DNA of 64,000 bases from a bacterium (lineage in GTDB: Bacteria; UBA10199; 2-02-FULL-50-16; JAJFLM01), in NCBI GenBank assembly GCA_965216315.1, contig CBDCFN010000015.1, positions 288,001-352,000 on the forward strand. The letters are read 5' to 3'. Made by a program: the position numbers and the translations under genes. Under the pieces are notes generated by a model that was not told the DNA's origin, did not search any database, and saw nothing but the letters and a program-made list of their open reading frames with translations. Shown here piece by piece: positions 42,247 to 62,922 of this stretch (within the stretch, counting starts at the first letter, position 1; each line of letters opens with the position of its first letter).

Positions 42247-42261
42247 TCTAAAAGGATTGTC

Positions 42262-44421: not shown

Positions 44422-44442
44422 TAGACGCAACTCTTAGCTTGA

Positions 44443-46056: not shown

Positions 46057-47064
46057 ATGTTTATCGCGGTGTCGGGTCACACCTTCGTGGGGATGGCGTC
46101 CGCCCTGAGTCCGCTTGTCTTGGCGAGTGGGTTGCAAGCAGAGGGTCTCCCCAATCAATTGAATCAAGCGTCGGGTTTTGCCCGTAAGACGCGGCCGGAT
46201 GTTACCTTACATCAACTTGCTGCGCCCACCGAAATGTTGATTCCGGAACCGGTCGCGTCTGAGGCGGGACCGGACGGGAGAATCGAAGTGCTCGCGGCCG
46301 GGTTGAGTCTGTGCTGCAGCGGTTGTGAGACCGGGATGACCCTCGTGCTCCCTGTGTTGACGGGGGCCGTCTTGTTTGGATTGGCGACGCTCGTGATCAA
46401 ATGGCGGTCGCGGGTTCGCCAAGAGCGCGAGGCGATGACCTTTCGTATCGCCCGGGCCCCGAGTCAGATGCGCAAGTTGGATGACTACTCCGACAAGTAC
46501 CGCAAACAGGTGACGGACGCGATTCTGCGCGCGGAGCGAAAAGATCTTGTCGCATGGCCGGTCGTGATGGAGCAGATCCGCGATGGCAACTATGGCAATG
46601 CGATCGAGACGCTGGCGACCCGACTGAAGCCTCAACTTAAAGCCGCGGAGCGCGAACGCTTGCTCCCCTTTGGACTCGCATTGGCGGCGGCTTATAAAGG
46701 CGGCAAAGAAGGGGCGTCGTTACCGTTCGGCACCTTTAATTTACTGAAGGATTTTTTTAATGAGCGTGAGGGGGTTGCGGAGGAACAGGCCCGCCAGAAT
46801 GCCATTGATCGCTTCTGGCTCGACCTGCTCCAATACTTTGTCTTCGGCATTCATATGGAGGGAATCGCCGCTGCGCGCGTCGGTGAAATCAAGACGATGC
46901 GGAGTAAAGGCCGGATCCCCTCGAATGAGAAGATGCATCGGGCCTTCCAGCGCTGGCTGGATGCCCTCGAGCCGGAACCCGATCCCAAGGTGCGCTTGCG
47001 GGACCTGCCCCTCTATCGCGACTTTGCCCAGGCGCTTAAGCGCCATTTGAACGGGCGCGCTTAA
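46057..47064 (+). CDS. Orphan protein with one internal TM segment
   Basis: Charge-poor N-terminus; TM segment LVLPVLTGAVLFGLATLVIKW. Confidence 0.7.
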   Translation: MFIAVSGHTFVGMASALSPLVLASGLQAEGLPNQLNQASGFARKTRPDVTLHQLAAPTEMLIPEPVASEAGPDGRIEVLAAGLSLCCSGCETGMTLVLPVLTGAVLFGLATLVIKWRSRVRQEREAMTFRIARAPSQMRKLDDYSDKYRKQVTDAILRAERKDLVAWPVVMEQIRDGNYGNAIETLATRLKPQLKAAERERLLPFGLALAAAYKGGKEGASLPFGTFNLLKDFFNEREGVAEEQARQNAIDRFWLDLLQYFVFGIHMEGIAAARVGEIKTMRSKGRIPSNEKMHRAFQRWLDALEPEPDPKVRLRDLPLYRDFAQALKRHLNGRA

Positions 47065-48067
47065 GCATAAAGGCGACATTCTCATGGCAGTTGATCGGAT
47101 CGATCTTGATCTCCGGATGCCGGGTGGCAAAGACGCGGAAGATCTCATCGGCAAAGCCCTGGCCGATCGTCGTGACCCCTTGAAAGTCGAGGGTGATTTC
47201 CTTGAATTCATCCAGGGCATGGACCAGCCGCTTGGCCTGGGCGCGGGAGACGTATTCTTCCCCTTCCTGAAAGAGTTTAACCGTGACCTGACTTTTTTCG
47301 AACTGGTAGTCTTCATTGGTGTACGTGCGGAAGATCTCCGTCAGTTGCCGCGTGGCGCGGGTACTCAGTTCAAAAATGACGCGCGTCCCCTGGCGAGCCC
47401 GGATGTCCGTAATAAAAAAATCACCGATGCGATTGTCCTTGATCAGCCCTTTGTGATGGCTCTCGATCGTCAGCCGGTCGGCGACCTTGGAGGTGAAGAA
47501 GATGCCCTCGCCGGAATGTCGTTCCGGTGCCGTCGTCTGCTTGCCCTTGAGCAGGTCCTGCAGGCCTTCCATTTCACTTGCCAGCCCTTTCTTGGCGCGG
47601 ATGTTTTCGAAAATGCCGACCCCCTGGTCGGTGACGTTGAACTGAATCGTCTCGGGGAGCTTGCGGACCGCGACGTCGATGAAGGGCGATTCCGCATGAT
47701 CGATCGCGTTGTTGACCATCTCCGTGAAGGCGTAGTGGAAGAGCGAGCGCGCGTTGTCCGAGAGTTCCCGGAGTAGGTCGGTCTGGGTCTCAAGTTCGCG
47801 ATACACGCGGTCCTCTTGGAGCCCACCCGCACGGTAGCGCTTATGCCATTGCGTCTGCGTGGCGGCAATTTCCCGGATTAGCTGGGGGTCATTGCGCAGA
47901 TAATAGGTCGTCCGCTTACTGGTTCCGAACTGGCGGATGCGCCCTTCCCGTAATAACGCCTGCAAATGCCGGTGGACGGCCTGGCGGCTGATGCCGAGTT
48001 GTTGAACGAGGCCGGAAGTAGTCAGTTTTTTACCTCTTTGAAATTCTTTAAGAATTTTCTCTTTCAT
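47036..48067 (-). CDS. wHTH + HATPase-like + STAS-like (DUF4325) protein
   Basis: GISRQAVHRHL; EMVNNAIDH, DQGVGI, GEGIFF; SRAQAKRL...LDFQGV..IGQGFADEIFRVF. Confidence 0.85.
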   Translation of the reverse strand: MKEKILKEFQRGKKLTTSGLVQQLGISRQAVHRHLQALLREGRIRQFGTSKRTTYYLRNDPQLIREIAATQTQWHKRYRAGGLQEDRVYRELETQTDLLRELSDNARSLFHYAFTEMVNNAIDHAESPFIDVAVRKLPETIQFNVTDQGVGIFENIRAKKGLASEMEGLQDLLKGKQTTAPERHSGEGIFFTSKVADRLTIESHHKGLIKDNRIGDFFITDIRARQGTRVIFELSTRATRQLTEIFRTYTNEDYQFEKSQVTVKLFQEGEEYVSRAQAKRLVHALDEFKEITLDFQGVTTIGQGFADEIFRVFATRHPEIKIDPINCHENVAFMLKRARSNGA

Positions 48068-48161: not shown

Positions 48162-48187
48162 CAACCTTTGGCTGCCCTAACCGATAG
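48162..48187 (+). promoter_or_regulatory. Recurrent promoter motif CAAC-N16-CGATAG
   Basis: Lies at the head of the co-oriented gene run 48243-57490. Confidence 0.75.
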
Positions 48188-48204: not shown

Positions 48205-48237
48205 ACTCTTTCACTGTCGTGGGGACAGGAGGAGGAG
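48205..48237 (+). repeat. Conserved 5'-UTR hairpin/RBS element, copy 1
   Basis: ACTCTTTCA-CTGTC-GTGGG-GACAG-GAGGAGGAG. Confidence 0.85.
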
Positions 48238-48242
48238 ACCCC

Positions 48243-48701
48243 ATGGGAGATTTTTTCAGTAATCTTGCAGACGTCGTCCACATCGGCGGCGGTTATCGCT
48301 TACAACTCGATGATCCGATTGAGCCGCATCGCGCGACGGCCAACGTCCATGTCGGCGGGACCAGTAATTGGCGGGGGCCGGGCCTGACCTTCGGCCTCGA
48401 TGGCGGCATCGATAGCGCGGGCGAAGGGCGCGTCGGCGCTCGCGTTGGTTTTGGCGGTCCACTTCATCTCATCCTGTGGGGTGATATCGCCGCGCAGGCG
48501 GGGGCCCACCTGCAGGATACTCAGACCGGTTTTGAAGCCGGCGCCTATACCGGCGTCGTCGGTCGCTTGCTCGCTTTGACGCCAGTCGGGCTGATCGGTC
48601 TGCAGGGTGAGGTCAATGCCGGCAACCTCGGCAACGGGGATGCCCAATTGGAACTCGGGGTCCAACTGATCTGGGGAACCTCGTTTAGCCTCTGGCTCTA
48701 A
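48243..48701 (+). CDS. Small Gly-rich beta-barrel-like protein with no signal peptide
   Basis: Alternating Gly/hydrophobic strands; strong SD before ATG 48243. Confidence 0.65.
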   Translation: MGDFFSNLADVVHIGGGYRLQLDDPIEPHRATANVHVGGTSNWRGPGLTFGLDGGIDSAGEGRVGARVGFGGPLHLILWGDIAAQAGAHLQDTQTGFEAGAYTGVVGRLLALTPVGLIGLQGEVNAGNLGNGDAQLELGVQLIWGTSFSLWL

Positions 48702-48709
48702 ACCGTAGA

Positions 48710-48743
48710 ACTCTTTCACTTGTCATGGGGACAAGAGGAGGAG
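48710..48743 (+). repeat. Conserved 5'-UTR hairpin/RBS element, copy 2
   Basis: 34 nt identical to 61942-61975. Confidence 0.9.
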
Positions 48744-48748
48744 AACTC

Positions 48749-49273
48749 ATGTTCAACACGCTTTCCAATCAATTAATGTCCATGGTTCGCGTCAGCGTCT
48801 TGGGCCTGGCCGGTTTGACGGCTTCGGCATGCTCTTGTAGCGCTGTGGAGAACCCGCCACCGGATGCCGCCCTTAGCGACGGGAATGTGTCAGACTCCGG
48901 TCTCCTGATGGGACCATCGACCAACCTAATCGAGGCCGTGTGCGGCAAGCTCTCCGCCTGCTATCCCGAGATGGATCTGGAGGCCTGTCGAACGGCCCTG
49001 GCGGGCGAGCCCGGCCGCCAGATCTGGGATGAATTCGGCGCGCCGGAGAATCGCTATAATGCCATGGAGCTGAATTCCGCAGTGCGCAGCGGGGACTTGC
49101 TGGTCAGTGATAGTAATCTGGGCGCCTGTGTCGATGCGATCGGTGCGCTTACATGTGCAGATCTAATCGGTGAACCGTGGTCGAGCCGCAATCCGGATGA
49201 TTTTGGCAACGTTGAGAATACGCTCGGTAGTGACGTGGTGCCTGCCTGTGGCGACGTTTTCGCGAGCAGATAA
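48749..49273 (+). CDS. Cys-rich putative lipoprotein
   Basis: Lipobox-like VSVLGLAGLTASAC; paired Cys helices (VCGKLSAC, ACVDAIGALTC). Confidence 0.7.
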   Translation: MFNTLSNQLMSMVRVSVLGLAGLTASACSCSAVENPPPDAALSDGNVSDSGLLMGPSTNLIEAVCGKLSACYPEMDLEACRTALAGEPGRQIWDEFGAPENRYNAMELNSAVRSGDLLVSDSNLGACVDAIGALTCADLIGEPWSSRNPDDFGNVENTLGSDVVPACGDVFASR

Positions 49274-49288
49274 AAACAGTGTTCTACG

Positions 49289-50926
49289 ATGTTTCAGTGC
49301 GCCCTCAATAGCCTGTCGACCACCCTCGCCGCGAGTGCGGTGGGCACGATTGGTACGAGTTACCTCAGTCAGTTTATGAACCCGGTGGACCCGATGATCA
49401 TGCCAACTCCAGGGGATTCTTATTATTGCTCGGTCCAGAGTGGCGACGAGGGTGGCGGTTCCAATCCGGCTCAGCGGTCATCTGTTGCCAGCTCTCTGTG
49501 GCTGCTCCGGCCGCGGAGCGAAATGACTTCCCTGTTGCGCGCGATGGCGGCGCAGCATCAAGTCACCTTTGATGTCTGGCTGGCCCGGATCCTGAAAGCG
49601 GCCGATGGCGAGGAAGTGTGCCGTCTGTTCGATCGTATCGAGCTTCGTGCAAATGCCAGCGACTGGCCGGAACCGGTGCGGACCTACGACCGGCAGGGCC
49701 GGGCGGCCGATACCATCCGCGCCTTCAAACTGGCCGGCGGCGTTCCTCTCTTACGGGACATCCTCGCAGACACCTCACACCCCTACCGGTGGCAGGCGAT
49801 TCGCGCCATTATTAGCCTGCAAGAGGCCGGGCTCCTGACAGCGACACAACAGCATGAGTTCATTCGCCCGCTGGCCGCGATGCTCCGTTCATTCTTGGAG
49901 GATCCCCGCGATAGTACGGATGGTCATGGGCTCTCGTTTGCCCTTCGGGCCCTCGGTCTGCTGGGCGCCCGCGAGGCGATTCCGGATCTCCAAGCGCTTT
50001 TCGACCTGCTCGCCGGAGTCGATGATCACACCAACAGTCTTCCGGCCCTTCTCCTACTCGCTCTCGGCACCTTGCGGGCCGCTTCCGCGCGACCGGCACT
50101 GCTGCGCTTGGCGGGAGCCGCGCAGTCACGACTGTATCGCGAAGCCATTATGGGGCTGGCGCATTTCGATGACGATGAAGCGAGCAGCCGTCTCGTCGGT
50201 CTGTTGGCCCATCCCAACCATGACATCCGCGCGCATGCGGCGCAGGCGCTCGGTAGGGCCGGTGCCCGGGAAGCGATCCTCTTATTGCAGACAGCCCTGC
50301 ACGACCGGCATGATTTAGTCCGGCTCTACGCCGCTCAAGCCTTGGTAAGATTAGGCGTATTTGATGCGGCCGTGGCTGTGTTGTGTCACTTAGCAACGAG
50401 TGAATCCACATATCTTCAGTTTCGCCTCGATGCCCTGGATACATTAGGGGCCTCTGCGGACCCCGAGATTGAGGAAACGCTACAACGGGCCTTCTTGAAT
50501 CCCGGCGAGCAACTCAATGCGCGGGCGCAAGAGTATGTTCGCTACCACGCGGCCTGCGCATTATTGCAACACGGCATTCGGGCGCCGCTCCCGTATTTGT
50601 TGGCTTTTCTTCGCGATCCTCAGCTGGATTCAAGTGCCGAGGTGTCATGGCGTTTCGCCGGTCAGACCGTTAGAAGACGCGTTCCGTTGCTGGTCAGCGA
50701 CGGTTTGCGCGTGACGACCATCCAGCATTTGAGTCGCGCGCACGTCCACGCAGCCGTTTCTTCCCTGAGAGGGTTCTTGAACTATCGCGGCCGCCAGATT
50801 GGTCAGGCCTGGGTGGGAGGGCTGGAAGTCAGAGCCGCGGCCGCCGCGGCGCTCGATCGGCTCGACCCGGGCTGGGACAAGCGCATGATGCGCGAATGGC
50901 GGGATTTCAATGGAGGTGTTCGATGA
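49289..50926 (+). CDS. Leader-family protein with HEAT (PBS-lyase-like) repeats
   Basis: N-terminus CALNSLSTTLAASA...YLSQFMNPVDPMIMPTP...YYCS; repeats such as IRAHAAQALG and VRLYAAQAL. Confidence 0.85.
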   Translation: MFQCALNSLSTTLAASAVGTIGTSYLSQFMNPVDPMIMPTPGDSYYCSVQSGDEGGGSNPAQRSSVASSLWLLRPRSEMTSLLRAMAAQHQVTFDVWLARILKAADGEEVCRLFDRIELRANASDWPEPVRTYDRQGRAADTIRAFKLAGGVPLLRDILADTSHPYRWQAIRAIISLQEAGLLTATQQHEFIRPLAAMLRSFLEDPRDSTDGHGLSFALRALGLLGAREAIPDLQALFDLLAGVDDHTNSLPALLLLALGTLRAASARPALLRLAGAAQSRLYREAIMGLAHFDDDEASSRLVGLLAHPNHDIRAHAAQALGRAGAREAILLLQTALHDRHDLVRLYAAQALVRLGVFDAAVAVLCHLATSESTYLQFRLDALDTLGASADPEIEETLQRAFLNPGEQLNARAQEYVRYHAACALLQHGIRAPLPYLLAFLRDPQLDSSAEVSWRFAGQTVRRRVPLLVSDGLRVTTIQHLSRAHVHAAVSSLRGFLNYRGRQIGQAWVGGLEVRAAAAAALDRLDPGWDKRMMREWRDFNGGVR

Positions 50927-52620
50927 CGTTTACTTGTGCCCTGAATACTTTGCCGACCACCCTCGCCGCGAGTGCGAGCATCTTGACGTCTCCGCGCGCC
51001 GTCGATTTCTTGGAGGCCTTTCAGGCCGATCCGGTCAATGGCCAATTAATAGTACCGATTCTTGCGGGAGATGCCAGCACAGCCACTCAAGATCGCTTTC
51101 ATGCGGAACCTTTTGCGGTAGAAAATTTCGCCGCCGTTCATGCGACCGTCACGACGTTGATCGCAGCCCTGCAAAAGCTCTGTGCCGGTCAGCAACGCTG
51201 CAGACTCATATTTGATGAGGTGTACCCGGGGGTTGCCCCACATATTTTTTCGATTCCCGCTAGCCCTGGAGCCTGGGAGGCTCGGCTTTACCAGGATCAC
51301 GGCACACACGCTGAGAGCTATTGGCTAGATTTCTTAAGGTCGGGACGCAAAGTAAGCATCACACTTCAGTATTCTGGTCAGCGGTACTTCGACACGGACA
51401 AGATCATGCTGTTCGGCGACATCTCGTCAGCAAGTATTGAGGTTGACGTCAGCTTTGCCCAGCCCGGGATGCGCGCCGCCCAGAACTCCCGGATGCATTA
51501 CTCCGATTCAAAAAGTAGCTCAGCGTATCTTTTACTATTTCAAGGCTCTCATCTTGATAGCTTGCGCCAGTTTTTGGGGATGGATTTATCACAAGCCTTG
51601 CCGGAACTGTCCGCCGAACTGGTCGAACACTTGGACTATGATCAATATGAAGACTCCGATGATGGCAACCGAAGCTTTTTCTACGATCATTATTCAAGCA
51701 TTGTCACACCCGATCAGCGGGTCACGGTCAGCTGGAATACAGACGATGAACTCGAAGAACCTGATGCCTATGGTCGAGTCCAAACGGAAGAACTCGGCGT
51801 GCAAATAGCTGCAGGAAGCGACGCGGCATCCGCTTTGCGTGACACAGAACGCCAGCTATGGGACTGGGTTCATCACCAAAAGGAGCCAAATCAAGAATTT
51901 CTGGAGTTTCAAGCCCAGTGTCAACGTATCAAGACTCTGCTATTCGCCTCCGGCGTTTTTCCACCAGACCATGCCCTGATAAGCGACCTCAGCGCCCCTA
52001 GCCATCCCGTATGGCATCTGGATGCCGAGAACATGGGGCATGTGCTAGGAGATATATTAAGTCGTATTTACCGTTCTCTCGAAGGATTTGAGTCCGCCGC
52101 CGCGGTTGCGCTCTATTGCCAGTTGCTCCAAGACCCAAAGCTGGGGCTGAGTGATGCTGAAAGTATTGAATATGTCATAGAGCACCTCTTGAATAATCCT
52201 CAAGCAGAGAGTCCTCCGCTGTTTGCAAAGGAAGCTGCACGGTTTCGCATTCTGCGTGCCCTCGTACCGCACCTAGTTCGGAACAACGCGACATACGGCC
52301 TTCTAGATATGCTAAGCGATTTGACATACAGCGCCCTGTTGAAAACCACGTGGTTTCAAGACCACAAAGCCGCTCAGCTCAAACCGCTGGAGGCTTACCC
52401 ACTCAATCCAACAAGAAGCGAAGCCTGGCGCCTGCTGATGGCTGAGATGGATCCGGCAGAACTACTCACGGAGGTCTTAGCCATTTGGACGGAGATAAGC
52501 GAAGAGATATTGCTATACCGTACAGTCGATGAAACCGAACGGGCCCGATTGAACGAAAAATATGAAGCCATGAAAACCTGGCTGACCTTGTGCCTGACAG
52601 GCCAGGGAGGTGAGTCATGA
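50923..52620 (+). CDS. Leader-family protein with shared 'domain X' and helical C-terminus
   Basis: GGAGG SD and ATGA overlap at 50923; MTFTCALNTLPTTLAASA. Confidence 0.82.
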   Translation: MTFTCALNTLPTTLAASASILTSPRAVDFLEAFQADPVNGQLIVPILAGDASTATQDRFHAEPFAVENFAAVHATVTTLIAALQKLCAGQQRCRLIFDEVYPGVAPHIFSIPASPGAWEARLYQDHGTHAESYWLDFLRSGRKVSITLQYSGQRYFDTDKIMLFGDISSASIEVDVSFAQPGMRAAQNSRMHYSDSKSSSAYLLLFQGSHLDSLRQFLGMDLSQALPELSAELVEHLDYDQYEDSDDGNRSFFYDHYSSIVTPDQRVTVSWNTDDELEEPDAYGRVQTEELGVQIAAGSDAASALRDTERQLWDWVHHQKEPNQEFLEFQAQCQRIKTLLFASGVFPPDHALISDLSAPSHPVWHLDAENMGHVLGDILSRIYRSLEGFESAAAVALYCQLLQDPKLGLSDAESIEYVIEHLLNNPQAESPPLFAKEAARFRILRALVPHLVRNNATYGLLDMLSDLTYSALLKTTWFQDHKAAQLKPLEAYPLNPTRSEAWRLLMAEMDPAELLTEVLAIWTEISEEILLYRTVDETERARLNEKYEAMKTWLTLCLTGQGGES

Positions 52621-53780
52621 TCGGTCTGAGTCACATGCTGGCAACACACCTTGCTCTCAACAGTACCCTGCTTGCGAGTACGACCTTTCTCTCGCATTTC
52701 CACAGCACCTTATTGCGCTATGGCATCGACCGTCCCGATGTCTCGATGAGTACAGCGATCAACCGTATGCCTCAGCCACACCGGCTGCTCGGCCGCATCA
52801 CCAAGCCACGACAAAGCGAGGCTGATGCGATCGCCCTCTTCCGCGATCGGCTGCTCGAGAAATTACCGGCCTATGCGGTACCGTTTGGGGATCGCCCGGA
52901 ATGGAATGCCACCATTATCAACGATCTGGCCCAACTAGTACGAAGCAAAATCGACTTGGCGCATGGGCTTCTTGGCCAGCAGAGATTCTTAGTCAGAAGC
53001 TTCACCCCTCGAGCATGGGACGCCGAGAGCTTAGATGAAATCCAGCCGGGTTTTCTCAAGAGTTTTATGGAATACGGTGTTGGACTCGACTACTATGTTA
53101 CTTATTGTTGTGAAGAATTTCGCGAAGCAGATGCCGGTCCTTTCTTCACAGGTGTTTTCGAAAGCGTCGCCACCGCAGCCAGTCGTTCTCGAGCGATCGG
53201 CATCCATAATGTCCTGAGCATGGTGCGCTCACTGGTTTATTTTGGCTTCGCGGACCTTGTGAGTGATCAAGTGAATCCCATCGCCATCATTGAAAAGGAA
53301 CCGGGCACGGGCCCGGAAAGCATCATTGAACTGGTCCGGATTCTAGGCCAGAGCCCATCACCCGACGCCTGCATCGGAGAACTGATCAAAGACTTTACGG
53401 GATATCACTGGCCGGACCGGCCCGGACCACCTGCCAGCCCTTATCGGCCCCAACATGTTTTGGAGCTCGCGCGGGCCATTTCGGCGGCCAAGATCACCGC
53501 ATTTCGACGCGGTTTTTTCCTGGTTGAGTTGCTGAAAATGACGCATTTTCAAGAATGGTGGAAGTCGTGTCAGCAAGGTGTCTATCCGGATCCGATTATC
53601 GCCAGCGTCGACATATTCATTGAGACAGTCATTGAAGCTTCAGGCCGTCGTCAGGCCGGTCCGGTAGTAGAGGAATTATGTCTCCGCTTCAACTCAACGA
53701 TGGAAAGTCTCGTCCAAGCGCGTTGGCAGCATTTTGAAAATGAAAATCCGTCACCTCCAGAAGAGGGGCCTTACCGATGA
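52617..53780 (+). CDS. Leader-family orphan protein
   Basis: ATGA overlap; LALNSTLLAST. Confidence 0.8.
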   Translation: MIGLSHMLATHLALNSTLLASTTFLSHFHSTLLRYGIDRPDVSMSTAINRMPQPHRLLGRITKPRQSEADAIALFRDRLLEKLPAYAVPFGDRPEWNATIINDLAQLVRSKIDLAHGLLGQQRFLVRSFTPRAWDAESLDEIQPGFLKSFMEYGVGLDYYVTYCCEEFREADAGPFFTGVFESVATAASRSRAIGIHNVLSMVRSLVYFGFADLVSDQVNPIAIIEKEPGTGPESIIELVRILGQSPSPDACIGELIKDFTGYHWPDRPGPPASPYRPQHVLELARAISAAKITAFRRGFFLVELLKMTHFQEWWKSCQQGVYPDPIIASVDIFIETVIEASGRRQAGPVVEELCLRFNSTMESLVQARWQHFENENPSPPEEGPYR

Positions 53781-54895
53781 GGTTTATTTATTCCTTGAAT
53801 TGTTTACCTGCCACGCTCGCCGCGTGTATGGCTTCCCCATCAATCGGCTACATAGAGCGCTCACTCAATCCGCCGGATGTCTTGGCCATGCCCGAGCCCG
53901 AGGCGTCGCTTTTTTGTTCAGCCCGATCCGATGATTTGTTGCGGTTAAGTCCCGGCAATCCCATCGGTGCCTGCTATCATGACGGTTCGTTTCGACTGTT
54001 CGGCCTCGACAAATTAACGACCACCGACGTGATCGGAACACTTTGCGATCGAAGGCCGCCTAGCTTCATTTTACGACTCGATGATTTAATTACAATGCGA
54101 CTTGAGAAACGAATCTTTGAGGGACCTGTAAGCGGGCTAGTTCCCATCCTAAAAGAATTCTCACGTAGATCTTGGACAAGTCGATTGGAATATAAAGCGC
54201 TGATGTGGTCGTGCGAGCGGCTCAAGCAGGAAACATCTTTTGATAGCATTGAAGAAATCGAAGTTTTTTTTGAAGCGATCGAAGCGTTTTCAGTAGCTCC
54301 AGTCTTTCCAAGGGGTCAATCACTCGGAGAACTCAAGCTAAGCGTTTACTACGCATTACTAAAAGCAGTGGAACGTTTTCTGCCTATGGGAGATGTTACT
54401 TTGTATAATCGTATCCTTAGAGCCATCCCGGCAAGTTATTATGATCACTTATGCCGGGCAGAAGACGCTATATTCCGCCTGGAGAGCGCCGCCAATTTCG
54501 GTCTCAAGCAGCGACTCCAGATCTTTCAATGTCTACTCGAAATCACAACGGCACATTACCAGGCGCAGAATGTTTTCATGATGGAAGAACAACTCGCTGG
54601 GTTAATGGGACGTACGCGAAGAGGGTTGATAGGCACAAAAAATGCGTCAAGGCTGACTGAGCAAACAGAAATAGTGCACCGTATCTGGCAGATGCTTGCG
54701 AACGTCGATAGTCTTCATGAAATTGTTTCCCAACACCTAAAAGAACTCCTGAATCACATTGAAAACGGTGTCATTACAGCGCCTCATTATTACGCATCTG
54801 GTTCACGCGACAACGTCATTAAGAACCACAAACTACACGCGGCACTGATCCATATACGTGATACCATGGAAACAAAGCGTGGAGACAGCGCATGA
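53777..54895 (+). CDS. Leader-family protein with 'domain Y'
   Basis: ATGA overlap; YSLNCLPATLAAC...YIERSLNPPDVLAMPEP..SLFCS. Confidence 0.82.
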   Translation: MRFIYSLNCLPATLAACMASPSIGYIERSLNPPDVLAMPEPEASLFCSARSDDLLRLSPGNPIGACYHDGSFRLFGLDKLTTTDVIGTLCDRRPPSFILRLDDLITMRLEKRIFEGPVSGLVPILKEFSRRSWTSRLEYKALMWSCERLKQETSFDSIEEIEVFFEAIEAFSVAPVFPRGQSLGELKLSVYYALLKAVERFLPMGDVTLYNRILRAIPASYYDHLCRAEDAIFRLESAANFGLKQRLQIFQCLLEITTAHYQAQNVFMMEEQLAGLMGRTRRGLIGTKNASRLTEQTEIVHRIWQMLANVDSLHEIVSQHLKELLNHIENGVITAPHYYASGSRDNVIKNHKLHAALIHIRDTMETKRGDSA

Positions 54896-55536
54896 CGTTC
54901 CTAGCTGTTAACCCACTTGCCATTACACCCGCGCTCGCCGCGAGTGCGACGAATATGAATTACTTGTCGCGCGCACTGAATCCGGCGGACGTGCTGGCAA
55001 TGCCGGATCCCAACGTTTCGCATTTTTGTCAGGTGAGTGGTGAGGACGGTTCTGGAAATCCACTGTTGGCCTCTTACGCTCCGGGGCACTTCCGAATCTT
55101 TGGCCTTCCACTATCGACCTCCCAAAAGGCAAATCTACTGACTCACAATGACGGATTGTTTAGGCAGCTCAATAATCTCCTCCAGGTTTCGGTCGCAGGC
55201 CGCGGAGTCGACCAGCTAAAGCCACTTTTGCTCGCTCTCTGTGATGCATGGGATGATGCCGACGGCTATCAGAAAAAGTATCTCGATGAAATCGACATAG
55301 CCATTCACGATATCCTCTCATCACCCGCGGCTTATGCAGGGCTTGATGACATGCGCGCGTTACTTCGCTGGGTTCGACGCTTGCCAAGTCAATCACACAC
55401 CTATGAGACACAGTTGATCGTTTATTCGGCCCTGCTTTGCGTACTTGATGACCGAGATGACTTTCTCGACATGGCAGAGGAAGCCGAGGACTTGTATGAA
55501 CTTATTATGGAACTCGTTCCCGATGAGTGGAAATGA
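54892..55536 (+). CDS. Leader-family protein, shorter paralog of 53777..54895
   Basis: ATGA overlap; PALAASA..NYLSRALNPADVLAMPDP..SHFC; GNP..A.Y..G.FR.FGL. Confidence 0.8.
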   Translation: MTFLAVNPLAITPALAASATNMNYLSRALNPADVLAMPDPNVSHFCQVSGEDGSGNPLLASYAPGHFRIFGLPLSTSQKANLLTHNDGLFRQLNNLLQVSVAGRGVDQLKPLLLALCDAWDDADGYQKKYLDEIDIAIHDILSSPAAYAGLDDMRALLRWVRRLPSQSHTYETQLIVYSALLCVLDDRDDFLDMAEEAEDLYELIMELVPDEWK

Positions 55537-56657
55537 TGAACGTCTCCTCCATCAACTATGCCCTCAACAGCACCGTACTTGCGAATACGATGGGGATGTC
55601 TTATCTCGGGCAGTTCATGAACCCGGCGGACCCGACGGTCATGCCGATGCCCAGGGATGTTTTCATTTGTTCGGCCCACAACGGCGATGACAATGACGGC
55701 GGGGGATCCGCCCCGGAACGGGAGACGCCGACTCTGTTTGACCTGATACTAAATAACAATGAGCGTGATATCGCGACGCTCTTGAAACGCACGGTGCAAA
55801 CGCCGCGACAACGGCTGCGCCAATTAGACGCCGAACTCCAACGCGTGCTCGCTTATGGGGAACCCTTGACGGAGAAACAGCGTGGGCTCTTGTTGTTTCG
55901 CGGCCTTCAATCAACGTGCTGGGATGAGTTGTTTGAACCGGATTTCGAGCAGGTACGTCTCTATGTTCCGGCAGTCAGCTGGGACCTGATGGCGCCGCAG
56001 GGCTTTCGTGTTACTAAGGCGCCGCTGGCGGCGGAAAACAGCGCCAACCTGCTGGCAATGGGTCGAATGCTGCTTGCCGCCGCTCGAGTGATGGATCAAC
56101 TGCGCTTGTGGGAGGCGGGACCGCGGCCTGAAGCCGGCCCGGAACGTGGCTGGCATATCGAGGGGTCGCGGCTCTTGCTCGCGGCGCCTAATGACATCAT
56201 GATCGAAATGGTGTTTGCCGCGGACTGTCGCGCCCTGCGTCTCAAAGTGGCTCAGGCCCAGAACGACGGCTTGATTGAGCTCGCATTGACGCATGCCGTG
56301 GCGGCCGGAACCCTGCAACCCCCCTTGTTCGAAGTCGTCATGGCGAGCACGGCGGTCGACCAACTCAAACAGTATTGTGGCCTTAGTCGAGGCGCGGCGC
56401 CTTTCGATCTTGCGGCGGGGCTGTTGGCACGCCTCCAATTCCGAGTGATCAGTGTCTTTCGTGACGATCAGGATTTTTTCGAGGTCATCGGGGAAATACG
56501 AAGCCACCGAATGCGGATTCGTGTCGGAGTGGCAACGGATCCTGATGCGGGTCTTGGAGTCGAGATGGCACTCTGGTCGAATCCCGGCCAGCGGGCGCGT
56601 CTTCATGGCGAGCCCCTGATTTTTTTGAACTGGATCAAAGGATTGCGTGAGTCATGA
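55533..56657 (+). CDS. Leader-family protein with 'domain X'
   Basis: ATGA overlap; YALNSTVLANT...YLGQFMNPADPTVMPMP..VFICS. Confidence 0.82.
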   Translation: MMNVSSINYALNSTVLANTMGMSYLGQFMNPADPTVMPMPRDVFICSAHNGDDNDGGGSAPERETPTLFDLILNNNERDIATLLKRTVQTPRQRLRQLDAELQRVLAYGEPLTEKQRGLLLFRGLQSTCWDELFEPDFEQVRLYVPAVSWDLMAPQGFRVTKAPLAAENSANLLAMGRMLLAAARVMDQLRLWEAGPRPEAGPERGWHIEGSRLLLAAPNDIMIEMVFAADCRALRLKVAQAQNDGLIELALTHAVAAGTLQPPLFEVVMASTAVDQLKQYCGLSRGAAPFDLAAGLLARLQFRVISVFRDDQDFFEVIGEIRSHRMRIRVGVATDPDAGLGVEMALWSNPGQRARLHGEPLIFLNWIKGLRES

Positions 56658-57490
56658 CGTTGCCGACGGCCGCGACGATGGTGCAATGGTTTCAACCCTT
56701 GGCTGCCTTGTATCTGCGCCATGCGGATCAGCTCGGGATCGACCAGCGCTATTTCACGACGACGGAGGAGGCCTTGCAGCACTTTCGCGCGCGCGCGCTG
56801 ACGGGTGAAGGCGCCGTGTCCGATGAACCGCGCCGTATCGCCCATCACCTCGTGCGGCATTTTGATAGCAACGCCTGGGCGGCGCAATTGAGCGGGCGTA
56901 CTGAACCCTGCCGGCGCGCTCTTTGGGACACGGTACAGGATGCGGCACAGGCCTTCAGCGCCTTAGGGGTGCACACCTTGGTGCGGAACAAGTCCGAGCG
57001 CCAGTGGGTCGATGAGATTGCGGCCTGGCGCGGGCGCCGTTTTGGGGACGCGCTGCACACGCCCTTGATACCGGCTCCCGGGCTAGAGAGGACATCTTTC
57101 GTGGACCAGTTGCAGCGTTCTTTAGATGGTGATCGCGATTGGTCCGATCGCTTCGCCATGCAGGTATGGGTCCATTATATCGGGGCGATGGCGGCGGTCG
57201 GTGACGGCGCAGCCGTGAATCTGCTGCTCAGTATCTATCAGGAAAGCGCAGGCCCGACACCCGGCGATGATCACGCGTTTCGTTCGGTCTTGGCCTCGGA
57301 ATTGGAATGGGTTTCCGATCGAAGGGCGGTGTTGGCGTTATTAAACGAAGCGCAGCGCAAGACGGCGCATTGGAGCAATGTCCTGCGCCAGCGCATCGGC
57401 TTGGAGCTCGGCCTGGAGGCCATTATCGCCACTGAACGGGCGGAGCGAGCCCAATGGCGGCTGGAGGCGGCAGGCGAACCGGGTGACTAG
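56654..57490 (+). CDS. Helical orphan protein, last gene of the array
   Basis: ATGA overlap; lacks the clear ALNS leader. Confidence 0.72.
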   Translation: MTLPTAATMVQWFQPLAALYLRHADQLGIDQRYFTTTEEALQHFRARALTGEGAVSDEPRRIAHHLVRHFDSNAWAAQLSGRTEPCRRALWDTVQDAAQAFSALGVHTLVRNKSERQWVDEIAAWRGRRFGDALHTPLIPAPGLERTSFVDQLQRSLDGDRDWSDRFAMQVWVHYIGAMAAVGDGAAVNLLLSIYQESAGPTPGDDHAFRSVLASELEWVSDRRAVLALLNEAQRKTAHWSNVLRQRIGLELGLEAIIATERAERAQWRLEAAGEPGD

Positions 57491-57533
57491 AGTGACTTGC
57501 CTTTAGCCCCACCATTATAGGAGGATTCCGCGC

Positions 57534-58337
57534 ATGCAAATTATCTATCTCATTTTAGGGGTGGCCGCCTTGGCCTTCGGGGGACTAACCATTTATCTGC
57601 GGGTCAAACGGCCGGAGAAACTCTGGAAACTCAAAGCGATGATCGAACGCTGGGGAGAGGTCCCGGGCAAGACGATCCACATCGTCGCCTATTCCTTATT
57701 ACCGATCTGGGTCGGCCTGGTCCTGGTCTTTGCCGGCATCGGGATTTCGCTTCCGAGCGGGACCCAACAAGCCGAGCTCAATCAGATCCTCGACGTCTTT
57801 AACGCCGGTGATCTCGACGCGAGTCGCACCCAACTCGAGGCCTTCTTGGCGAAACATCCGGAGCACGAAATTGCGCTGATCTTGTTGGGTCACGTCAATT
57901 ATGACCAGGGCAAGTTGGAGGCGGCGGAACAAAGCTACCAGCGGGCGATCACGGCCTCGGGCGGGAAGAGTTTTCGAGCCCATAATGCCATCGCTATTCT
58001 GTATGAAGCTGGGAACCAATTAGAACGTGCGGAAACCCATTACAATAAGTCGATTGAACTCAATCCCAAATATGCTCATGCCTATTCGGGGCTCGCCGTC
58101 GTGAAACTAAAAAATTCCGAGGACGAGGCCGCCCTCAAGTTGGCCCAAAAAGCCTATACCCTCAATAAAAAGGATGCCGTTATCGCCTCCAACCTGGCAG
58201 TAGCGTACCACTACAACCAGAACGTGACCGAACGCGACAAGATGGTCAAGCGGGCCGCGGAACTGGGCTATGCAAACGTCAAGGATCTCCAGCAGATCTT
58301 CAGTGGTGAGTTGACCATCCGCCCATCCGCGCCCTAG
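57534..58337 (+). CDS. Membrane-anchored TPR protein
   Basis: AGGAGG SD; two TM segments followed by TPR repeats. Confidence 0.85.
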   Translation: MQIIYLILGVAALAFGGLTIYLRVKRPEKLWKLKAMIERWGEVPGKTIHIVAYSLLPIWVGLVLVFAGIGISLPSGTQQAELNQILDVFNAGDLDASRTQLEAFLAKHPEHEIALILLGHVNYDQGKLEAAEQSYQRAITASGGKSFRAHNAIAILYEAGNQLERAETHYNKSIELNPKYAHAYSGLAVVKLKNSEDEAALKLAQKAYTLNKKDAVIASNLAVAYHYNQNVTERDKMVKRAAELGYANVKDLQQIFSGELTIRPSAP

Positions 58338-61051
58338 CGCGGACTAAAAAAGGGACTCTCCGATTCTATTTCAGGTTCAGGTAACTGCTTCGTGTTGATG
58401 GGTTCGATGGGCACCGATCCGCCTCCCTCGCCTGACGCACCACCACAACGATCCGGGTTGGCGCGACAGAAGGCATCCATTAAAGAGCTCCCGGGATCAC
58501 CTGCCGGACTACCGGCGCCGCCCGCGAGGCCGCCGCTGCAACAGGCTGCCAGCTGCGTCATGCTACTCGTGATGCCGAGTGGGTTGTTGAGCATGGTGGT
58601 CCCATCACACATCACCGTCGAACACGCCATGGTTTGGGTCAGATCATACAGCAAGTGCGGGGCACAGACGGCTCCAATCCCAAAAGCACCGGTGTTCTCC
58701 TCACAGTAGGCACGGGTGCCTCCTGTCGAGCTGCACGGGTCGCGGTTGATTGGGCCGGGCGGTTGTTCAATGCATTGGGTGAGGCGTTTATGGACAACGT
58801 CGGCGTAACTACAGCCGGATAGACCGCAGTGGCTGCTATCAGCACCGCAACTGAACATTGGGCCCGCGCGGGAATAAATGTCGCGAAGGACGCGATCAGT
58901 CCGTGCGGTATTGGTGGGATCGAAAGATCGGCCTCCCTCCGCGTCTATCAGGCTGTCCAATGCAATTACAATGCTTGCAGACATGACAGCACGCTGGATG
59001 GCTGCTGATCCTTGACGGTAGGTCGTTGCGTCAACCCAGACCTCCAGCGTTCCATCGGGATTAGTCCTGATTTGGAACCCGAAGTCACTGCCACTATCAC
59101 CTCCCACGTGGACACGGATATTGCCATGCGACATATCGTAAGCTGCTTTGGAGATGGCTGAAATAGCCTTGTATTCGAGATTGTCAGGAACCCGTTGTCG
59201 GGGGACCCCGTAGCGATCGGCGGCGACGCGCGCTACTTGTTGGGCTAAAGGCGTGTCCTCGCCACCGAAGCCAGCCGCATCCGCCTCTGCATCATCAGCC
59301 CTATCTTGTACGTCACCGGCCGCCTCTCTCACGGTCTCCTCTTGTTCCGCGCGGACTTCCGGGGGCGGCGGGGGATCATCCTCATCATCCGAAGCAATCT
59401 TCACCTGACAATAGGGATTATTCGCCAGCGGTGCGGTGAATATTTCAACGGGGATGGTGCCACCCAGGGCCTCCATCGTGCACTGAAATAAGCGCGCTTC
59501 TTCTTGATTCGCAGAAAACTTGGAGCCTTGCGAGAGGCGTCGCCCGCGGCACTGTCCCGCCGCATCGAAGCCGGCCTGGCTGTTGCCGTCACCGGAGGCA
59601 CAATTGCCCTCGCCTCCGGTCGCAGTCGACGGATCCAATGCGGCGCGTAGGTCCGCACTCCTTTGCGGGCGGGAAGGGGCCGCACCGGACGGAAAGAAGT
59701 TGTTTTGTGGCCCGGATAGTTTACCTAACTGCGAAATATCCCAATTGGATCGAGCCGTGGCGCCAGAGGCGCCTCCGGAGGCACAGGATTGCGGACAGAG
59801 ATTATTGTTGGCGCTCCGCTGAAGTAGAAAACAGGTGGCGTCGGCGTCGATCCGGTTGAGCAGCCCTTTGTCGATGAAGTCCAAGGGGTTCTCAAGTTCG
59901 ACTTTGACGAGGCGGTCTTGACTCAGGTCAAATAGGACAATTCCGTAGTTCTGAGCATCGAGTGAAAATTTATCGCCGAGCGTCTCGGCCAAGGTCCTAA
60001 TAAGGGGCATGTCTGCGTCAGTGGCCATCTCCGGATTGAACAGCGACAGCTTGGCCCGCAAGATCTCCAAGTTTGGCTGTGGACTGACGGCACCCGCCAA
60101 GTCGTTTAACTGCACGGTCAAGGGCAGCACACCATTTAGATGATGCAGGGCCAAGATACGTCGATCCGATTCGATCAGTTGCTGGACTAAATCCAAGGTG
60201 ATGGCATGATGGAGTGAATTGGCTCGGACGATGTCGGAACCGCGAATTTTCATAAAGCGCTCATGAAAGTCAGAGTTAGCCTGCCACGCGGCACCGATAT
60301 TTCCATGATGATAGGCGACCAAGAAGCGAATCAGGGCGTAATCGATGCCGTTATCTCCCTCGGGAAACATCTCACTCTGGATCTCACCAAAAGGGCCTAT
60401 GCCGGCCGCTGGCAGTTCGGAATAGAAGCGAGCGCCTTGCAGCCAGGCCAGGGTCTCGAGCGATGCTTTCAAGTCGGTATCCGGGGTAATCGTCGCGTCG
60501 GTGGGGAGCTGAGCGAAGAGCTGGCGAATCACGGCCCCGAGTTGTTCCGTCAGCTGACGCTGCTTGATATCGTTTATAGACTCCTCCACGCGGGGCCTCT
60601 CCGCCGTTTCTGTCTTTAGTTCGGCCTCTGGTCGTTTGGCGTCGATAGTAACGGAGTTTTGAGTCGACGTGTTCTTATCTCCGCTGCTAAAAAAGTCGAG
60701 CGGCAATCTACTCAGAATATTTTTTAAGAACGACGACGTTTGCGCTGGTGCTGGCGTTGCGGCGACCAGGGGATACATGTCGCGAATTATGCTGGCGAGC
60801 CCTTGTCCGGCGCCAATCACGCGCTGCCGTTCAAAGTGGATATAGGCGTCCAGGTACTGGTGCAGTTGCTGTAGTGACGTGGGGGGTGCCGCCGTTCGGC
60901 TTACGTCACGTAATGCCATGGGCGCAGGCCTGATTTGTTTGAGTGAGGTTTCGGTTTTTGGTGCCGCACTCAGCGGTGTGGCGGTGAGGCCGACGATGAA
61001 GAGGCTAAGGACCGCAATGAGATACCAACTGGATCGATGAATGTGTCGCAT
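58334..61051 (-). CDS. Large secreted Cys-rich hypothetical protein
   Basis: GAGGAG SD before ATG 61051; Sec signal (YLIAVLSLFIVGLTATPLSA); many Cys in the C-terminal half. Confidence 0.8.
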   Translation of the reverse strand: MRHIHRSSWYLIAVLSLFIVGLTATPLSAAPKTETSLKQIRPAPMALRDVSRTAAPPTSLQQLHQYLDAYIHFERQRVIGAGQGLASIIRDMYPLVAATPAPAQTSSFLKNILSRLPLDFFSSGDKNTSTQNSVTIDAKRPEAELKTETAERPRVEESINDIKQRQLTEQLGAVIRQLFAQLPTDATITPDTDLKASLETLAWLQGARFYSELPAAGIGPFGEIQSEMFPEGDNGIDYALIRFLVAYHHGNIGAAWQANSDFHERFMKIRGSDIVRANSLHHAITLDLVQQLIESDRRILALHHLNGVLPLTVQLNDLAGAVSPQPNLEILRAKLSLFNPEMATDADMPLIRTLAETLGDKFSLDAQNYGIVLFDLSQDRLVKVELENPLDFIDKGLLNRIDADATCFLLQRSANNNLCPQSCASGGASGATARSNWDISQLGKLSGPQNNFFPSGAAPSRPQRSADLRAALDPSTATGGEGNCASGDGNSQAGFDAAGQCRGRRLSQGSKFSANQEEARLFQCTMEALGGTIPVEIFTAPLANNPYCQVKIASDDEDDPPPPPEVRAEQEETVREAAGDVQDRADDAEADAAGFGGEDTPLAQQVARVAADRYGVPRQRVPDNLEYKAISAISKAAYDMSHGNIRVHVGGDSGSDFGFQIRTNPDGTLEVWVDATTYRQGSAAIQRAVMSASIVIALDSLIDAEGGRSFDPTNTARTDRVLRDIYSRAGPMFSCGADSSHCGLSGCSYADVVHKRLTQCIEQPPGPINRDPCSSTGGTRAYCEENTGAFGIGAVCAPHLLYDLTQTMACSTVMCDGTTMLNNPLGITSSMTQLAACCSGGLAGGAGSPAGDPGSSLMDAFCRANPDRCGGASGEGGGSVPIEPINTKQLPEPEIESESPFFSPR

Positions 61052-61079
61052 GTTCAAGTTCTCCTCAACGCTAGATCGC

Positions 61080-61095
61080 TGCAATATGAGTGCCA
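61080..61095 (-). promoter_or_regulatory. Sigma54 -24/-12 promoter
   Basis: Minus strand TGGCACTCATATTGCA (GG-N10-GC). Confidence 0.8.
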
Positions 61096-61153
61096 TGGCG
61101 AAATAATATATATATCTGAAAAATATAGAGTTTGTAAGAAATTTAGACAGAAC

Positions 61154-61190
61154 AATATTATCAAATTGATAATATTATCATTATGATAAT
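61154..61190. promoter_or_regulatory. Overlapping palindromes of TGATAAT/ATTATCA heptamers
   Basis: AATATTATCAAATTGATAATATTATCATTATGATAAT. Confidence 0.65.
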
Positions 61191-61237
61191 AAATTAGCGA
61201 AAATCCTGGAAAAGTAGGCTGACATCTACAGACCTGT

Positions 61238-61786
61238 TTAACCCATCATCAAGGCGCTGTTGAGGAGACTCGCGTCACGATCGAAATAGAGCGCAATCGG
61301 ATCGTCCGTAGTCAAGGCGAGCAGGGCGAGGCCGGTGTGCAGGTCCGTAAAATTGGTCAGGGGTGCGAAGGTGGCGCGGGCGGCTGTCTCGGTTGCCTGA
61401 ATTCTTTCCTGTTGCTGCTCTTTTGCCGTCTCGACTTCATAGAGGCTGACCGCTGCGTCATAAGCCGAACGGATCAATTCATCAAAACGAGCGGTTTCTT
61501 GCTGGGCCAGCTCGCCGCGCGTTCCACTGAATTGTTGCGCGTCATTGGCGAGGGACTCCTGAAAACCCCTGAGTCCCGCAAGCTGTTGGATCAGTTCGTT
61601 GCGTCGGTAGACAAAACGGCCTCGTGGATTGGGCAAGGTAAAGACCATCTCCGGCGGCCGCAAGTAGACCTGATTCATTGTCTTGCGGGGCCAGTGGACC
61701 GGGCCGACGTGCAGGCTATGCGCGACGGGGGCCATCGCAGCCATCGTGTTCAAATAGGATAGATAATAGTTAGTCGCTAGGGACAT
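61238..61786 (-). CDS. Orphan protein with coiled-coil-like region and charge-free N-terminus
   Basis: MSLATNYYLSYLNTMAAMA; GAGGAG SD. Confidence 0.7.
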   Translation of the reverse strand: MSLATNYYLSYLNTMAAMAPVAHSLHVGPVHWPRKTMNQVYLRPPEMVFTLPNPRGRFVYRRNELIQQLAGLRGFQESLANDAQQFSGTRGELAQQETARFDELIRSAYDAAVSLYEVETAKEQQQERIQATETAARATFAPLTNFTDLHTGLALLALTTDDPIALYFDRDASLLNSALMMG

Positions 61787-61820
61787 ACCCTCTCCTCAAT
61801 CTCCCCATGAGACATTCTCG

Positions 61821-61846
61821 TTGTCGCAATTCCGGCCCTGGAGTTG
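61821..61846 (-). promoter_or_regulatory. Recurrent promoter motif CAAC-N16-CGACAA
   Basis: Minus strand, upstream of ATG 61786. Confidence 0.72.
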
Positions 61847-61900
61847 TGTAAAAAGGGCCTTTGAGCCCCATTTTGACGAATCTTCGCAAAGAACTTCAGA

Positions 61901-61926
61901 CAACCTTGCGCAATCAGGGTCGATAA
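61901..61926 (+). promoter_or_regulatory. Recurrent promoter motif CAAC-N16-CGATAA
   Basis: Upstream of UTR element copy 3 and ATG 61978. Confidence 0.78.
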
Positions 61927-61941
61927 GGCCCCCGCAAGCCC

Positions 61942-61975
61942 ACTCTTTCACTTGTCATGGGGACAAGAGGAGGAG
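61942..61975 (+). repeat. Conserved 5'-UTR hairpin/RBS element, copy 3
   Basis: ACTCTTTCACTTGTCATGGGGACAAGAGGAGGAG. Confidence 0.9.
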
Positions 61976-61977
61976 TC

Positions 61978-62922
61978 ATGTCTCTGCTAAGCAGTAGTCT
62001 TTCCTTTAATTCGATGGCCTTGGCGAGTGCAGCCGGGTCTCAAAGACTGCTTACGAGCACGGCTCTAGGGCCATGGCTCAACGCCTTTCACTCGCAGCCT
62101 GACGTGGGGCAATTGACAGTTCCAATTGTGACGCCCGATCCAGCTCAAGCCAGTGGATTTCAAATTGCTGCGGTGCCACTGACACGTGGCAATGCAGTGC
62201 AAACGATCAGAATGATTAAGCAAATCTTGGCCGAGTTGCCGCGGGATGCTCATGGGATGCAGTTCAAGTTGACTCAACTGAGCGAAGATTGGGTTGTATC
62301 CTTTAAGATGTTTACATTTTTACCGGTCATGACTTTTAGCCGGCCGGGTCGCCGTATCAAAATTATGTCTAATTCGTGTCGCGATGCAGCCCGTATTGTG
62401 GTGGAGGAGGGTTATGAGGCGGCAAACGTGCGACAATCGGTTTTGATAACTGAGTCTCATCCAAACCGGTTTTTTATTGATAGCTATTGTTTTAGGATTG
62501 AATCCGTGTTGGTGGAAAGTCTATGCACCTATCTCAACCTGCCCACGAATGCTCCTCTTGAAGTCATCGCGCACGCGCTTCCTGCTGAAATCAGCTTTGA
62601 AGCGGGGGTCCAACGAAGCGAAGATCCTGTTCATGAGCCAATGGAGGGAGCCTTAGAGCTCGAAAGTCAACGAGTCGGTCAAACCCTTGGCGTGCATGCG
62701 GGACTTGATCCCAGCGCGCGGCGGCGCGCCGAGTATTCCGAACGCATTCATGTTTGGCTAACCATGGACCCAGAACACGACGGTCGAATGACGCCGGAGC
62801 AACTCAAATTCTGGAACTGGGTCCGATCACGCATTCAGCCTAGTGCTGAGGAGACCGCGGCATATTTGAAGCGTACTGAGGCGCGCTACCGAGCAACGGC
62901 GGGTCATGATCCAAGTGCCTGA
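61978..62922 (+). CDS. Leader-family protein with 'domain X'
   Basis: LSFNSMALASAA; QPDVGQLTVPIV resembles DPVNGQLIVPIL of 50923. Confidence 0.8.
   Translation: MSLLSSSLSFNSMALASAAGSQRLLTSTALGPWLNAFHSQPDVGQLTVPIVTPDPAQASGFQIAAVPLTRGNAVQTIRMIKQILAELPRDAHGMQFKLTQLSEDWVVSFKMFTFLPVMTFSRPGRRIKIMSNSCRDAARIVVEEGYEAANVRQSVLITESHPNRFFIDSYCFRIESVLVESLCTYLNLPTNAPLEVIAHALPAEISFEAGVQRSEDPVHEPMEGALELESQRVGQTLGVHAGLDPSARRRAEYSERIHVWLTMDPEHDGRMTPEQLKFWNWVRSRIQPSAEETAAYLKRTEARYRATAGHDPSA

Follow-up and report, generated by a model that had tools for sequence, protein, structure and literature searches.

A repeated leader hairpin over the Shine-Dalgarno site of unrelated genes in a sigma-28-type regulon of a UBA10199 bacterium

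In the genome of a bacterium of the UBA10199 lineage, a hairpin of 33-34 nucleotides (nt) recurs almost unchanged in front of unrelated genes, each time over the Shine-Dalgarno (SD) site. Our analysis centred on a 64-kb stretch of this genome (the window; C15:288001-352000); the whole genome, which measures 2.96 Mb and is 98.3% complete, holds five copies, three inside the window and two outside, and all five (5/5) are sense-oriented, each covering the SD site of its gene. This is a real, repeated, SD-hiding leader; SD-sequestering leader hairpins as such are already known. As to its role, we favour a reading whose chances we regard as about even: a cis-acting RNA lock on translation, which would have spread by the copying of gene 5' ends and would be opened by a trans-acting factor or an upstream ribosome. 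What is computed from the sequence is where the element lies, how it folds and pairs with the SD, its promoter context and its conservation; from these we infer the later steps of the mechanism. The window contains three full copies and one partial element:

48205..48237, plus strand: copy A, a variant hairpin with its SD paired (from sequence, fold and covariance model).
48710..48743, plus strand: copy B, the 34-nt hairpin, starting 9 nt past the stop of gene A and without a promoter of its own (best promoter score -3.9).
61942..61975, plus strand: copy C, the 34-nt hairpin, identical to B (from sequence, genome search and fold).
61800..61812, minus strand: partial element F, an inner stem TCTC/GAGA with an AUGGG loop and without the anti-SD arm.

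A preliminary description of this DNA had reported an identical 34-mer at 48710 and 61942 in front of unrelated genes, and the sequence bears this out: copies B (48710-48743) and C (61942-61975) show no difference, while BLASTP of the gene B product against the gene C product gives no match. Compared with this 34-mer, copy A has one deletion and two substitutions and retains the fold; copy D, at C15:352205 just past the window end, has 4 substitutions, and copy E, at C16:1699649 on the minus strand, has 1. Genome-wide, the 34-mer occurs twice exactly, three times at up to 2 mismatches and four times at up to 4 (still four at up to 9), in a search that allowed substitutions only and hence missed the indel-bearing copy A by design. 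A covariance model of the five copies, which match it by construction, found no sixth member in the whole genome, the next match (E 0.056) being the antisense of a copy. The genome search thus added two copies, D and E, to those described before, both at start codons.

The predicted hairpin has 13 bp, with an outer stem of 7 bp, an A.A mismatch, an inner stem of 6 bp (5 in copy A) and an RUGGG loop, the first base of which is a purine after a pyrimidine in every copy; from the stem end to the start codon there are 2-7 nt. The outer stem pairs CUCUUUC with GGAGGAG, two U-G pairs included, and is thus even longer than the CUCUUU/GAGGAG pairing first proposed. The 34-mer has a folding energy of -15.0 kcal/mol (z -3.5), with 2/200 shuffles equally stable and 93% of the ensemble in this fold; copy A, whose retained pairing had also been noted earlier, is predicted to fold at -15.8 kcal/mol (z -3.5). 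The antisense strand of the 34-mer folds at -8.0 kcal/mol, compared with -15.0 for the sense strand, because, of the three places where the DNA palindrome is imperfect, two become U-G wobbles in the sense strand. When the growing transcript is folded in silico, the inner stem forms while part of the SD is still to be made, and the outer arm closes on the SD afterwards.

Ranked by SD opening energy among 1074 SD-bearing genes, the five copies stand at positions 32, 41, 56, 72 and 270; gene starts were taken from a simple purpose-made gene caller, so that these ranks, and the counts that depend on gene starts, are approximate. Together with the position at start codons in 5/5 cases and the predicted fold, the ranks uphold the central proposal of the preliminary description, namely a portable 5' untranslated region hairpin able to hide the SD within an orphan regulon. 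Another copy had been placed before the minus-strand gene at 61786. The TCTC-ATGGG-GAGA sequence is indeed present there, but it has the inner stem only and leaves the SD open (opening energy 4.6 kcal/mol, rank 811/1074); partial element F is at most a degenerate relative of the five copies.

The opening energies also bear on whether the element might be an RNA thermometer of the fourU or ROSE kind. Like the fourU thermometers of Yersinia lcrF, which controls a type III system, and Salmonella agsA (PMC3280987, in part), it is a single hairpin whose 5' arm lies on the SD through U-G wobbles, with an internal mismatch. Unlike them, it has no fourU motif (the arm being CUCUUUC, there is no UUUU/AGGA pairing) and occurs as near-unchanged repeats before unrelated genes, and Rfam gives no match over any copy at E up to 5. 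The computed SD opening energy at 37 C is 14.2, 13.2 and 9.2 kcal/mol, about twice that of E. coli ibpA and ibpB (5.7 and 6.7 in the same computation), a comparison that depends on growth temperature and would weigh less for a thermophile; for copies B and C, the computed value reaches about 7 only at 60 C. We thus consider a thermometer highly improbable.

Two further ideas, for which we see next to no chance, concern the loop and the GGA-rich SD: a target of CsrA/RsmA, or an alternative start at the loop AUG. The loop ATG/GTG is in frame with the gene in the three plus-strand window copies (offsets 24, 24 and 21), as the preliminary description stated, but not in D and E (25 and 23) or in minus-strand F (22). 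An in-frame loop codon, found in 3/5 copies, is therefore no conserved feature; it has no SD upstream, and a minor strain variant in sequencing run X2, with 4 nt inserted behind 61975, breaks the frame. Some likeness to a CsrA/RsmA target does exist, since the hairpin is rich in GGA and covers the SD in leaders presumably transcribed by sigma-28, and csrA occurs in one genome of the same family (8% contaminated). CsrA sites expose ANGGA in hairpin loops (PMC4894983, in part), whereas here the loop is RUGGG and all three GGAs have at least their GA in the stem. The CsrA family PF02599 has no match in this 98.3%-complete genome, in a search whose controls matched in 3/14 and which matched in 2/40 relatives. 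On these grounds the suggested CsrA/RsmA target is not borne out.

The hairpins stand in a shared promoter context, with three promoter motifs in the window:

48162..48187, plus strand: putative sigma-28-like promoter CAAC-N16-CGATA before copy A and the operon, assigned from its motif, 22.6 bits.
61901..61926, plus strand: sigma-28-like promoter before copy C, 22.3 bits.
61821..61846, minus strand: weaker sigma-28-like promoter of gene F, 14.9 bits (12.0 with a cleaned matrix).

Four of the five copies (A, C, D and E) start 15-19 nt past the -10 box of such a motif; copy B has none and belongs to the same operon as gene A, 9 nt behind the gene A stop. CAAC-N16-CGATA occurs 151 times in the genome, compared with about 35 at other spacings, and the promoter matrix, built from gene-linked matches, has 299 matches against 36 on the reversed sequence (the tandem-repeat region C16:684-691 kb being left out of the count). 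The motif is enriched over the reversed control in 41/41 genomes of the class searched, with 37-151 exact matches per genome against 2-22. Of the 158 promoter-linked genes, 80 have an ATG 5-12 nt past the -10 box and so look leaderless (about half); this spacing places the start site, and the hairpin would accordingly begin about 5-13 nt into the transcript. Some sigma-28 leaders hide the SD with hairpins of other sequence (C16:2181422, 2164674 and 2168825). A GGTGCG-like word is enriched in sigma-28 leaders, for example in C16:2160000-2190000, with GTGCG in 13/74 of them as against 44/1014 other upstream regions.

A FliA-like sigma gene (C16:350679; below the family cut-off) lies inside a non-flagellar type III secretion cluster, where SctV scores above the hrcV cut-off and Pfam matches cover J, L, N, O, P, Q, R, S, T and D-like subunits; flagellin was found in 0/7 genomes. 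Against a needle-less system, the cluster probably also encodes a needle subunit, judging from a protein of 183 aa (L040:4386-4937, in the C16 type III cluster) with a long Gly/Ala/Ser-rich N-terminus before a needle-like C-terminal segment. Searched as a profile from 17 genomes, this C-terminus places needle-type entries (PrgI, MxiH and a needle co-chaperone complex) within the top 11 PDB matches (E 0.003-0.31); TIGR02105 is matched by 2/17 members of the family, and PF09392 alone gave nothing significant. As for the putative substrates, at most 2 charged residues in positions 2-31 were counted in 88/158 promoter-linked proteins compared with 241/2244 others. Type III substrates carry Ser/Thr-rich unstructured signals, and such low-charge N-termini are as expected of them (PMC10333785, in part), which would make the promoter-linked proteins putatively secreted; by eye, 4/5 hairpin host genes have one. 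A regulon of comparable design is the FliA attack-phase regulon of Bdellovibrio bacteriovorus, with a mapped consensus TTAAG-N16-CCGATA and many non-flagellar genes (PMC3627812, in part). The sigma-28-type promoter, the N16 spacing and the CCGATA -10 box are alike, whereas here the -35 box is CAAC and not TTAAG, flagellin was found in none of 7 genomes and the sigma factor is encoded in a type III cluster; the parts of that paper at hand mention no repeated leader. A literature search, with supplements outside its scope and the element's own sequence not searched in print, found no paper joining UBA10199 with type III secretion.

How the copies differ suggests both selection and recent movement. 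Genes C and D are paralogues with 47% amino-acid identity that agree at 24/82 four-fold sites and are thus saturated; their hairpins agree at 30/34 positions, two of the differences being unpaired and the other two forming a C-G to U-A swap. Because these nucleotides and a compensatory pair were kept between paralogues saturated at synonymous sites, selection likely acts on the RNA fold, although as a sign of selection the C/D conservation is suggestive, not strong. Between copies C and B there is no difference, and between C and E just one, at the unpaired first base; the genes behind B and E are unrelated, and the identity among B, C and E ends within one base of the hairpin borders. Copy E is itself a mosaic, joining the hairpin to an SD-to-codon-8 stretch that is identical at 32/35 nt to that of gene 50923 in the window operon. 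Taken with the sharing of the hairpin, this mosaic indicates that short 5' patches move between genes of the regulon. Another leader, of 26 nt, is also shared between genes.

A search for the core TC-RTGGG-GA flanked by a stem of at least 4 pairs gives 9 sites outside coding sequence and 7 within it; for nine control loops, the non-coding number is 0-1. The copies make up five of these 9, and two more, F (TCTC/GAGA) and C16:1639930 (CCTC/GAGG), are sigma-28 leaders with other stems, which hints that the loop may be read by some factor. C16:2022259, with no gene behind the site, and C16:1718360 (minus strand), with no sigma-28 promoter found, were left out of the family. The latter has a different SD-overlapping hairpin with a GTC-ATGGG-GA core, before a lipoprotein-like gene; the first residues of its product are reminiscent of gene B.

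The sharing of 5' DNA by unrelated genes has a parallel among type III effectors. Stavrinides et al. (2006) reportedly described terminal reassortment, in which 5' modules are shuffled among unrelated type III effector genes. The present case is similar in that copy E is a mosaic and the genome has a type III system with a cognate regulon, linked to it presumably by the sigma promoter; it differs in that the patch is tiny (33-35 nt), without promoter and mostly without coding signal, and secretion of the products is putative. Terminal reassortment is cited in PMC7406222 (in part).

Could the repeat instead act at the level of DNA, as an operator CTTGTC-N5-GACAAG, a mobile palindrome of the repetitive extragenic palindromic (REP) type or a cassette recombination site? 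The inner palindrome is perfect in DNA, and several families of REP-like hairpins exist in the genome, placed immediately before housekeeping genes and in some cases over SDs (for example C16:132325, 1919508 and C15:316847). Moreover, run X3 includes a contig in which 61941 is followed by 48710 across the repeat, as excision would leave them; yet the 34 letters fit both sides and are not phaseable from short-word contigs, so this joint counts neither way, and X1, from the same sample, breaks at the repeat. A joint of 48742 to 50918 in X2 is accounted for by copy E. The copies keep a fixed orientation, their changes are symmetric in both arms, the flaws of the palindrome are sense-strand wobbles, and the flanks show no consistent target duplication. 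Against an operator, all four (4/4) non-coding CTTGTC-N5-GACAAG sites are copies and the spacer is fixed; against a REP-like element, there are five copies only, all sense and all at sigma-28-linked SDs. A site for cassette assembly (attC-like), the recombination idea of the preliminary description, is likewise not supported: 2/9 operon genes carry the repeat, copies do not border the variable stretch at about 53.5-56.8 kb, and the sense RNA folds more stably (-15.0 against -8.0 kcal/mol). We regard a DNA-level element as very unlikely.

A lock on translation could work as follows. The FliA-like sigma factor of the secretion cluster would transcribe the host genes, with the hairpin beginning shortly after the start site; the inner 6-bp stem would form first and the outer arm would then close over GGAGGAG, holding translation low until something reads or unwinds the structure. 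At copy B, release might come from the ribosome stopping at gene A. Such translational coupling by RNA unfolding (PMC12548453, in part) is plausible there because masking 15 nt beyond the gene A stop opens the outer stem in the computation, and the copy, 9 nt after that stop, is within a terminating ribosome's reach; the other four copies differ in having no upstream gene on the transcript. For regulated opening, copies A, C, D and E would need a trans-acting factor, such as an RNA-binding protein, helicase or nuclease that recognises the UC-RUGGG-GA stem-loop. Candidate readers are two RhlE-like proteins among the four DEAD-box helicases, at C16:1048092 and about C16:1487900, which have the sigma-28-like promoter motif upstream (19.9 and 25.9 bits) where the other two have none. 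Hfq was found in 0/7 genomes, this one included. A trans-acting antisense RNA was considered and rejected, with no match above 14 nt elsewhere in the genome and one suggestive site inside a long coding frame. Unrelated genes would have acquired the element by short-patch copying of their 5' ends, after which selection would have kept it. At the head of the operon, two locks could gate a chain of genes, given six stop/start overlaps further downstream.

By analogy, the nearest functional precedent would be YopD-LcrH, which hold back yop translation until secretion through AU-rich 5' untranslated sites (PMC3493969, in part). In both cases a leader feature shared by a subset of the mRNAs of a type III regulon could delay translation; in Yersinia a repressor acts on AU-rich stretches, whereas here the GC-rich stem itself would be the block. 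In a more specific idea that we think unlikely, the stem-loop would be a sequence-specific mRNA tag of the type III regulon. UC-RUGGG-GA would be recognised by a factor linked to secretion, for instance a chaperone or one of the RhlE-like helicases controlled by the same sigma, and the SD would open only once the machine is ready. If this were true, copying 34 nt would put a new gene under secretion-coupled translation, and type III substrates would have a portable signal in RNA of defined sequence. mRNA secretion signals have been proposed for type III effectors, and it has long been unsettled whether RNA features of substrate mRNAs tie their translation to secretion (PMC10333785, in part).

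Several observations weigh against a regulated lock. Only 5 of about 158 regulon genes carry the element, and in the sigma-28 leaders that lack it the SD is just slightly more closed than usual (n=56 vs 1014, p 0.05). Covariation, named earlier as a check, shows in one compensatory C-G to U-A pair, but the signal is weak: it amounts to one pair in five sequences, and 99/500 shuffles reach the observed score. Four random substitutions sparing the SD would keep all pairs 3-14% of the time, and 1-3% with a double change. Five of the 9 non-coding core sites are simply the copies, and the two left out of the family either lack a following gene or lie outside the regulon. Gene A has a charged N-terminus and gene B is lipoprotein-like, so that not all host genes resemble type III substrates; the helicases are linked to the element through promoter motifs alone. 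Transcription, folding and repression of the leader are themselves predicted, and the absence of homologues from 40 relatives and three public collections speaks for no deep conservation.

The main rival of the translation lock, possible but in our view doubtful, is an unregulated damper or by-product: a strong-SD leader copied among young genes, giving fixed low translation or a shield for the 5' end, with no reader. Short shared 5' patches are common here (E with 50923, the N-terminal codons of the operon, the other 26-nt leader), and three identical copies fit recent copying. The duplex of the 16S anti-SD with the SD (about -12.4 kcal/mol) also outweighs the roughly -8.5 kcal/mol contributed by the outer stem, so a ribosome may invade unaided. 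Copying alone, by contrast, predicts neither the borders at the hairpin ends nor 30/34 identity between saturated paralogues, and a plain damper has no need to keep the primary sequence.

Sequence conservation would be accounted for if the 5' arm were removed and the SD thereby freed, either by RNase III or loop-specific cleavage or by a promoter within the hairpin. In T4 late genes, the SD is freed by loss of the 5' arm of a leader hairpin, which serves as a model. RNase III is encoded in the genome, and the purine after a pyrimidine at the first loop position is as at start sites. However, with 13 bp and a mismatch the stem is short for an RNase III substrate. A scan for sigma-70-type promoters (the only class scanned) found none over copies A and B; CGATA is missing from the 5' arm, and the spacing behind the sigma-28 box is not constant (15-19 nt). 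Processing or a start-site switch of this kind seems to us improbable.

With a 34-nt element set near-unchanged before unrelated genes of one regulon, nature has in effect carried out a transplant experiment, which also illustrates how a control module may be acquired by new orphan genes in an uncultured lineage; with one genome, five copies and weak covariation, its weight is limited.

The element is lineage-restricted, found in this one genome only. A 23-mer at up to 2 mismatches was found in 0/40 relatives, and the covariance model gave 18 weak matches in 10 of these genomes. On inspection, all 18 proved to be REP-like repeats, SD hairpins of an unrelated kind or matches in coding sequence, and in none did a gene start have the paired RUGGG loop. 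The exact core pattern has 0 matches in GTDB contigs and 0 in viral contigs, and 2 in metagenome contigs that we rejected as chance matches. Searching 92 further genomes of the class for the promoter followed by the core gave 9 matches in 7 genomes, about the chance level. With a looser pattern, four distinct genomes or collections yielded 11 distinct matches, not one of them an SD hairpin. The nearest relatives compared belong to other genera, so short leaders could have drifted. Among the 9 matches to promoter and core, one weak lead is contig C102 of genome G002, of the same family, a sigma-28 leader with a GTC-GTGGG-GAC stem-loop and an open SD.

The host genes and their neighbours in the window are as follows:

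48243..48701, plus strand: gene A, a 152-aa protein without Pfam or NCBIfam match (small beta-barrel-like look-alikes are a lead only).
48749..49273, plus strand: gene B, a 174-aa orphan with, by eye, a lipoprotein-like hydrophobic stretch ending in Cys.
49289..57490, plus strand: seven further genes, six without Pfam match, with six consecutive stop/start overlaps and the hairpin in none.
61238..61786, minus strand: gene F, a 182-aa protein without family match, divergent from gene C.
61978..62922, plus strand: gene C, a 314-aa orphan.

Gene D, the paralogue of C with its own hairpin copy, starts just outside the window at C15:352245. A search of 5.8 billion sequences, limited by length (95-305 aa for B), returned for proteins B and C nothing but the proteins themselves, and protein C has no family, homologue or Atlas match of at least 0.9. 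Along the operon 48243-57490, where two of nine genes have the hairpin, a low-charge N-terminus is common to most of the seven downstream genes. The operon proteins (window 49289-56657) share the N-terminal motifs ALNSL..TLAAS and SYL.QFMNP.D...MP.P, with DNA patches identical up to 21 nt between genes. Over about 53500-56800, run X2 has a depth of 0-5 in place of about 17, along with divergent contigs, which suggests that the orphan genes there are strain-variable.

The orphan operon adjoins the likely replication origin: the window at 40339-45831 holds dnaA, yidC-like and mnmE-like genes (named by eye from their translations), and the GC skew turns near 40 kb. Five TGTCAA boxes at 48067, 48078, 48100, 48111 and 48132, with about 11-bp phasing, lie between the operon promoter and a divergent helix-turn-helix-ATPase-STAS gene (47036-48067); they are possibly sites of that regulator, or minus-strand -35 boxes.

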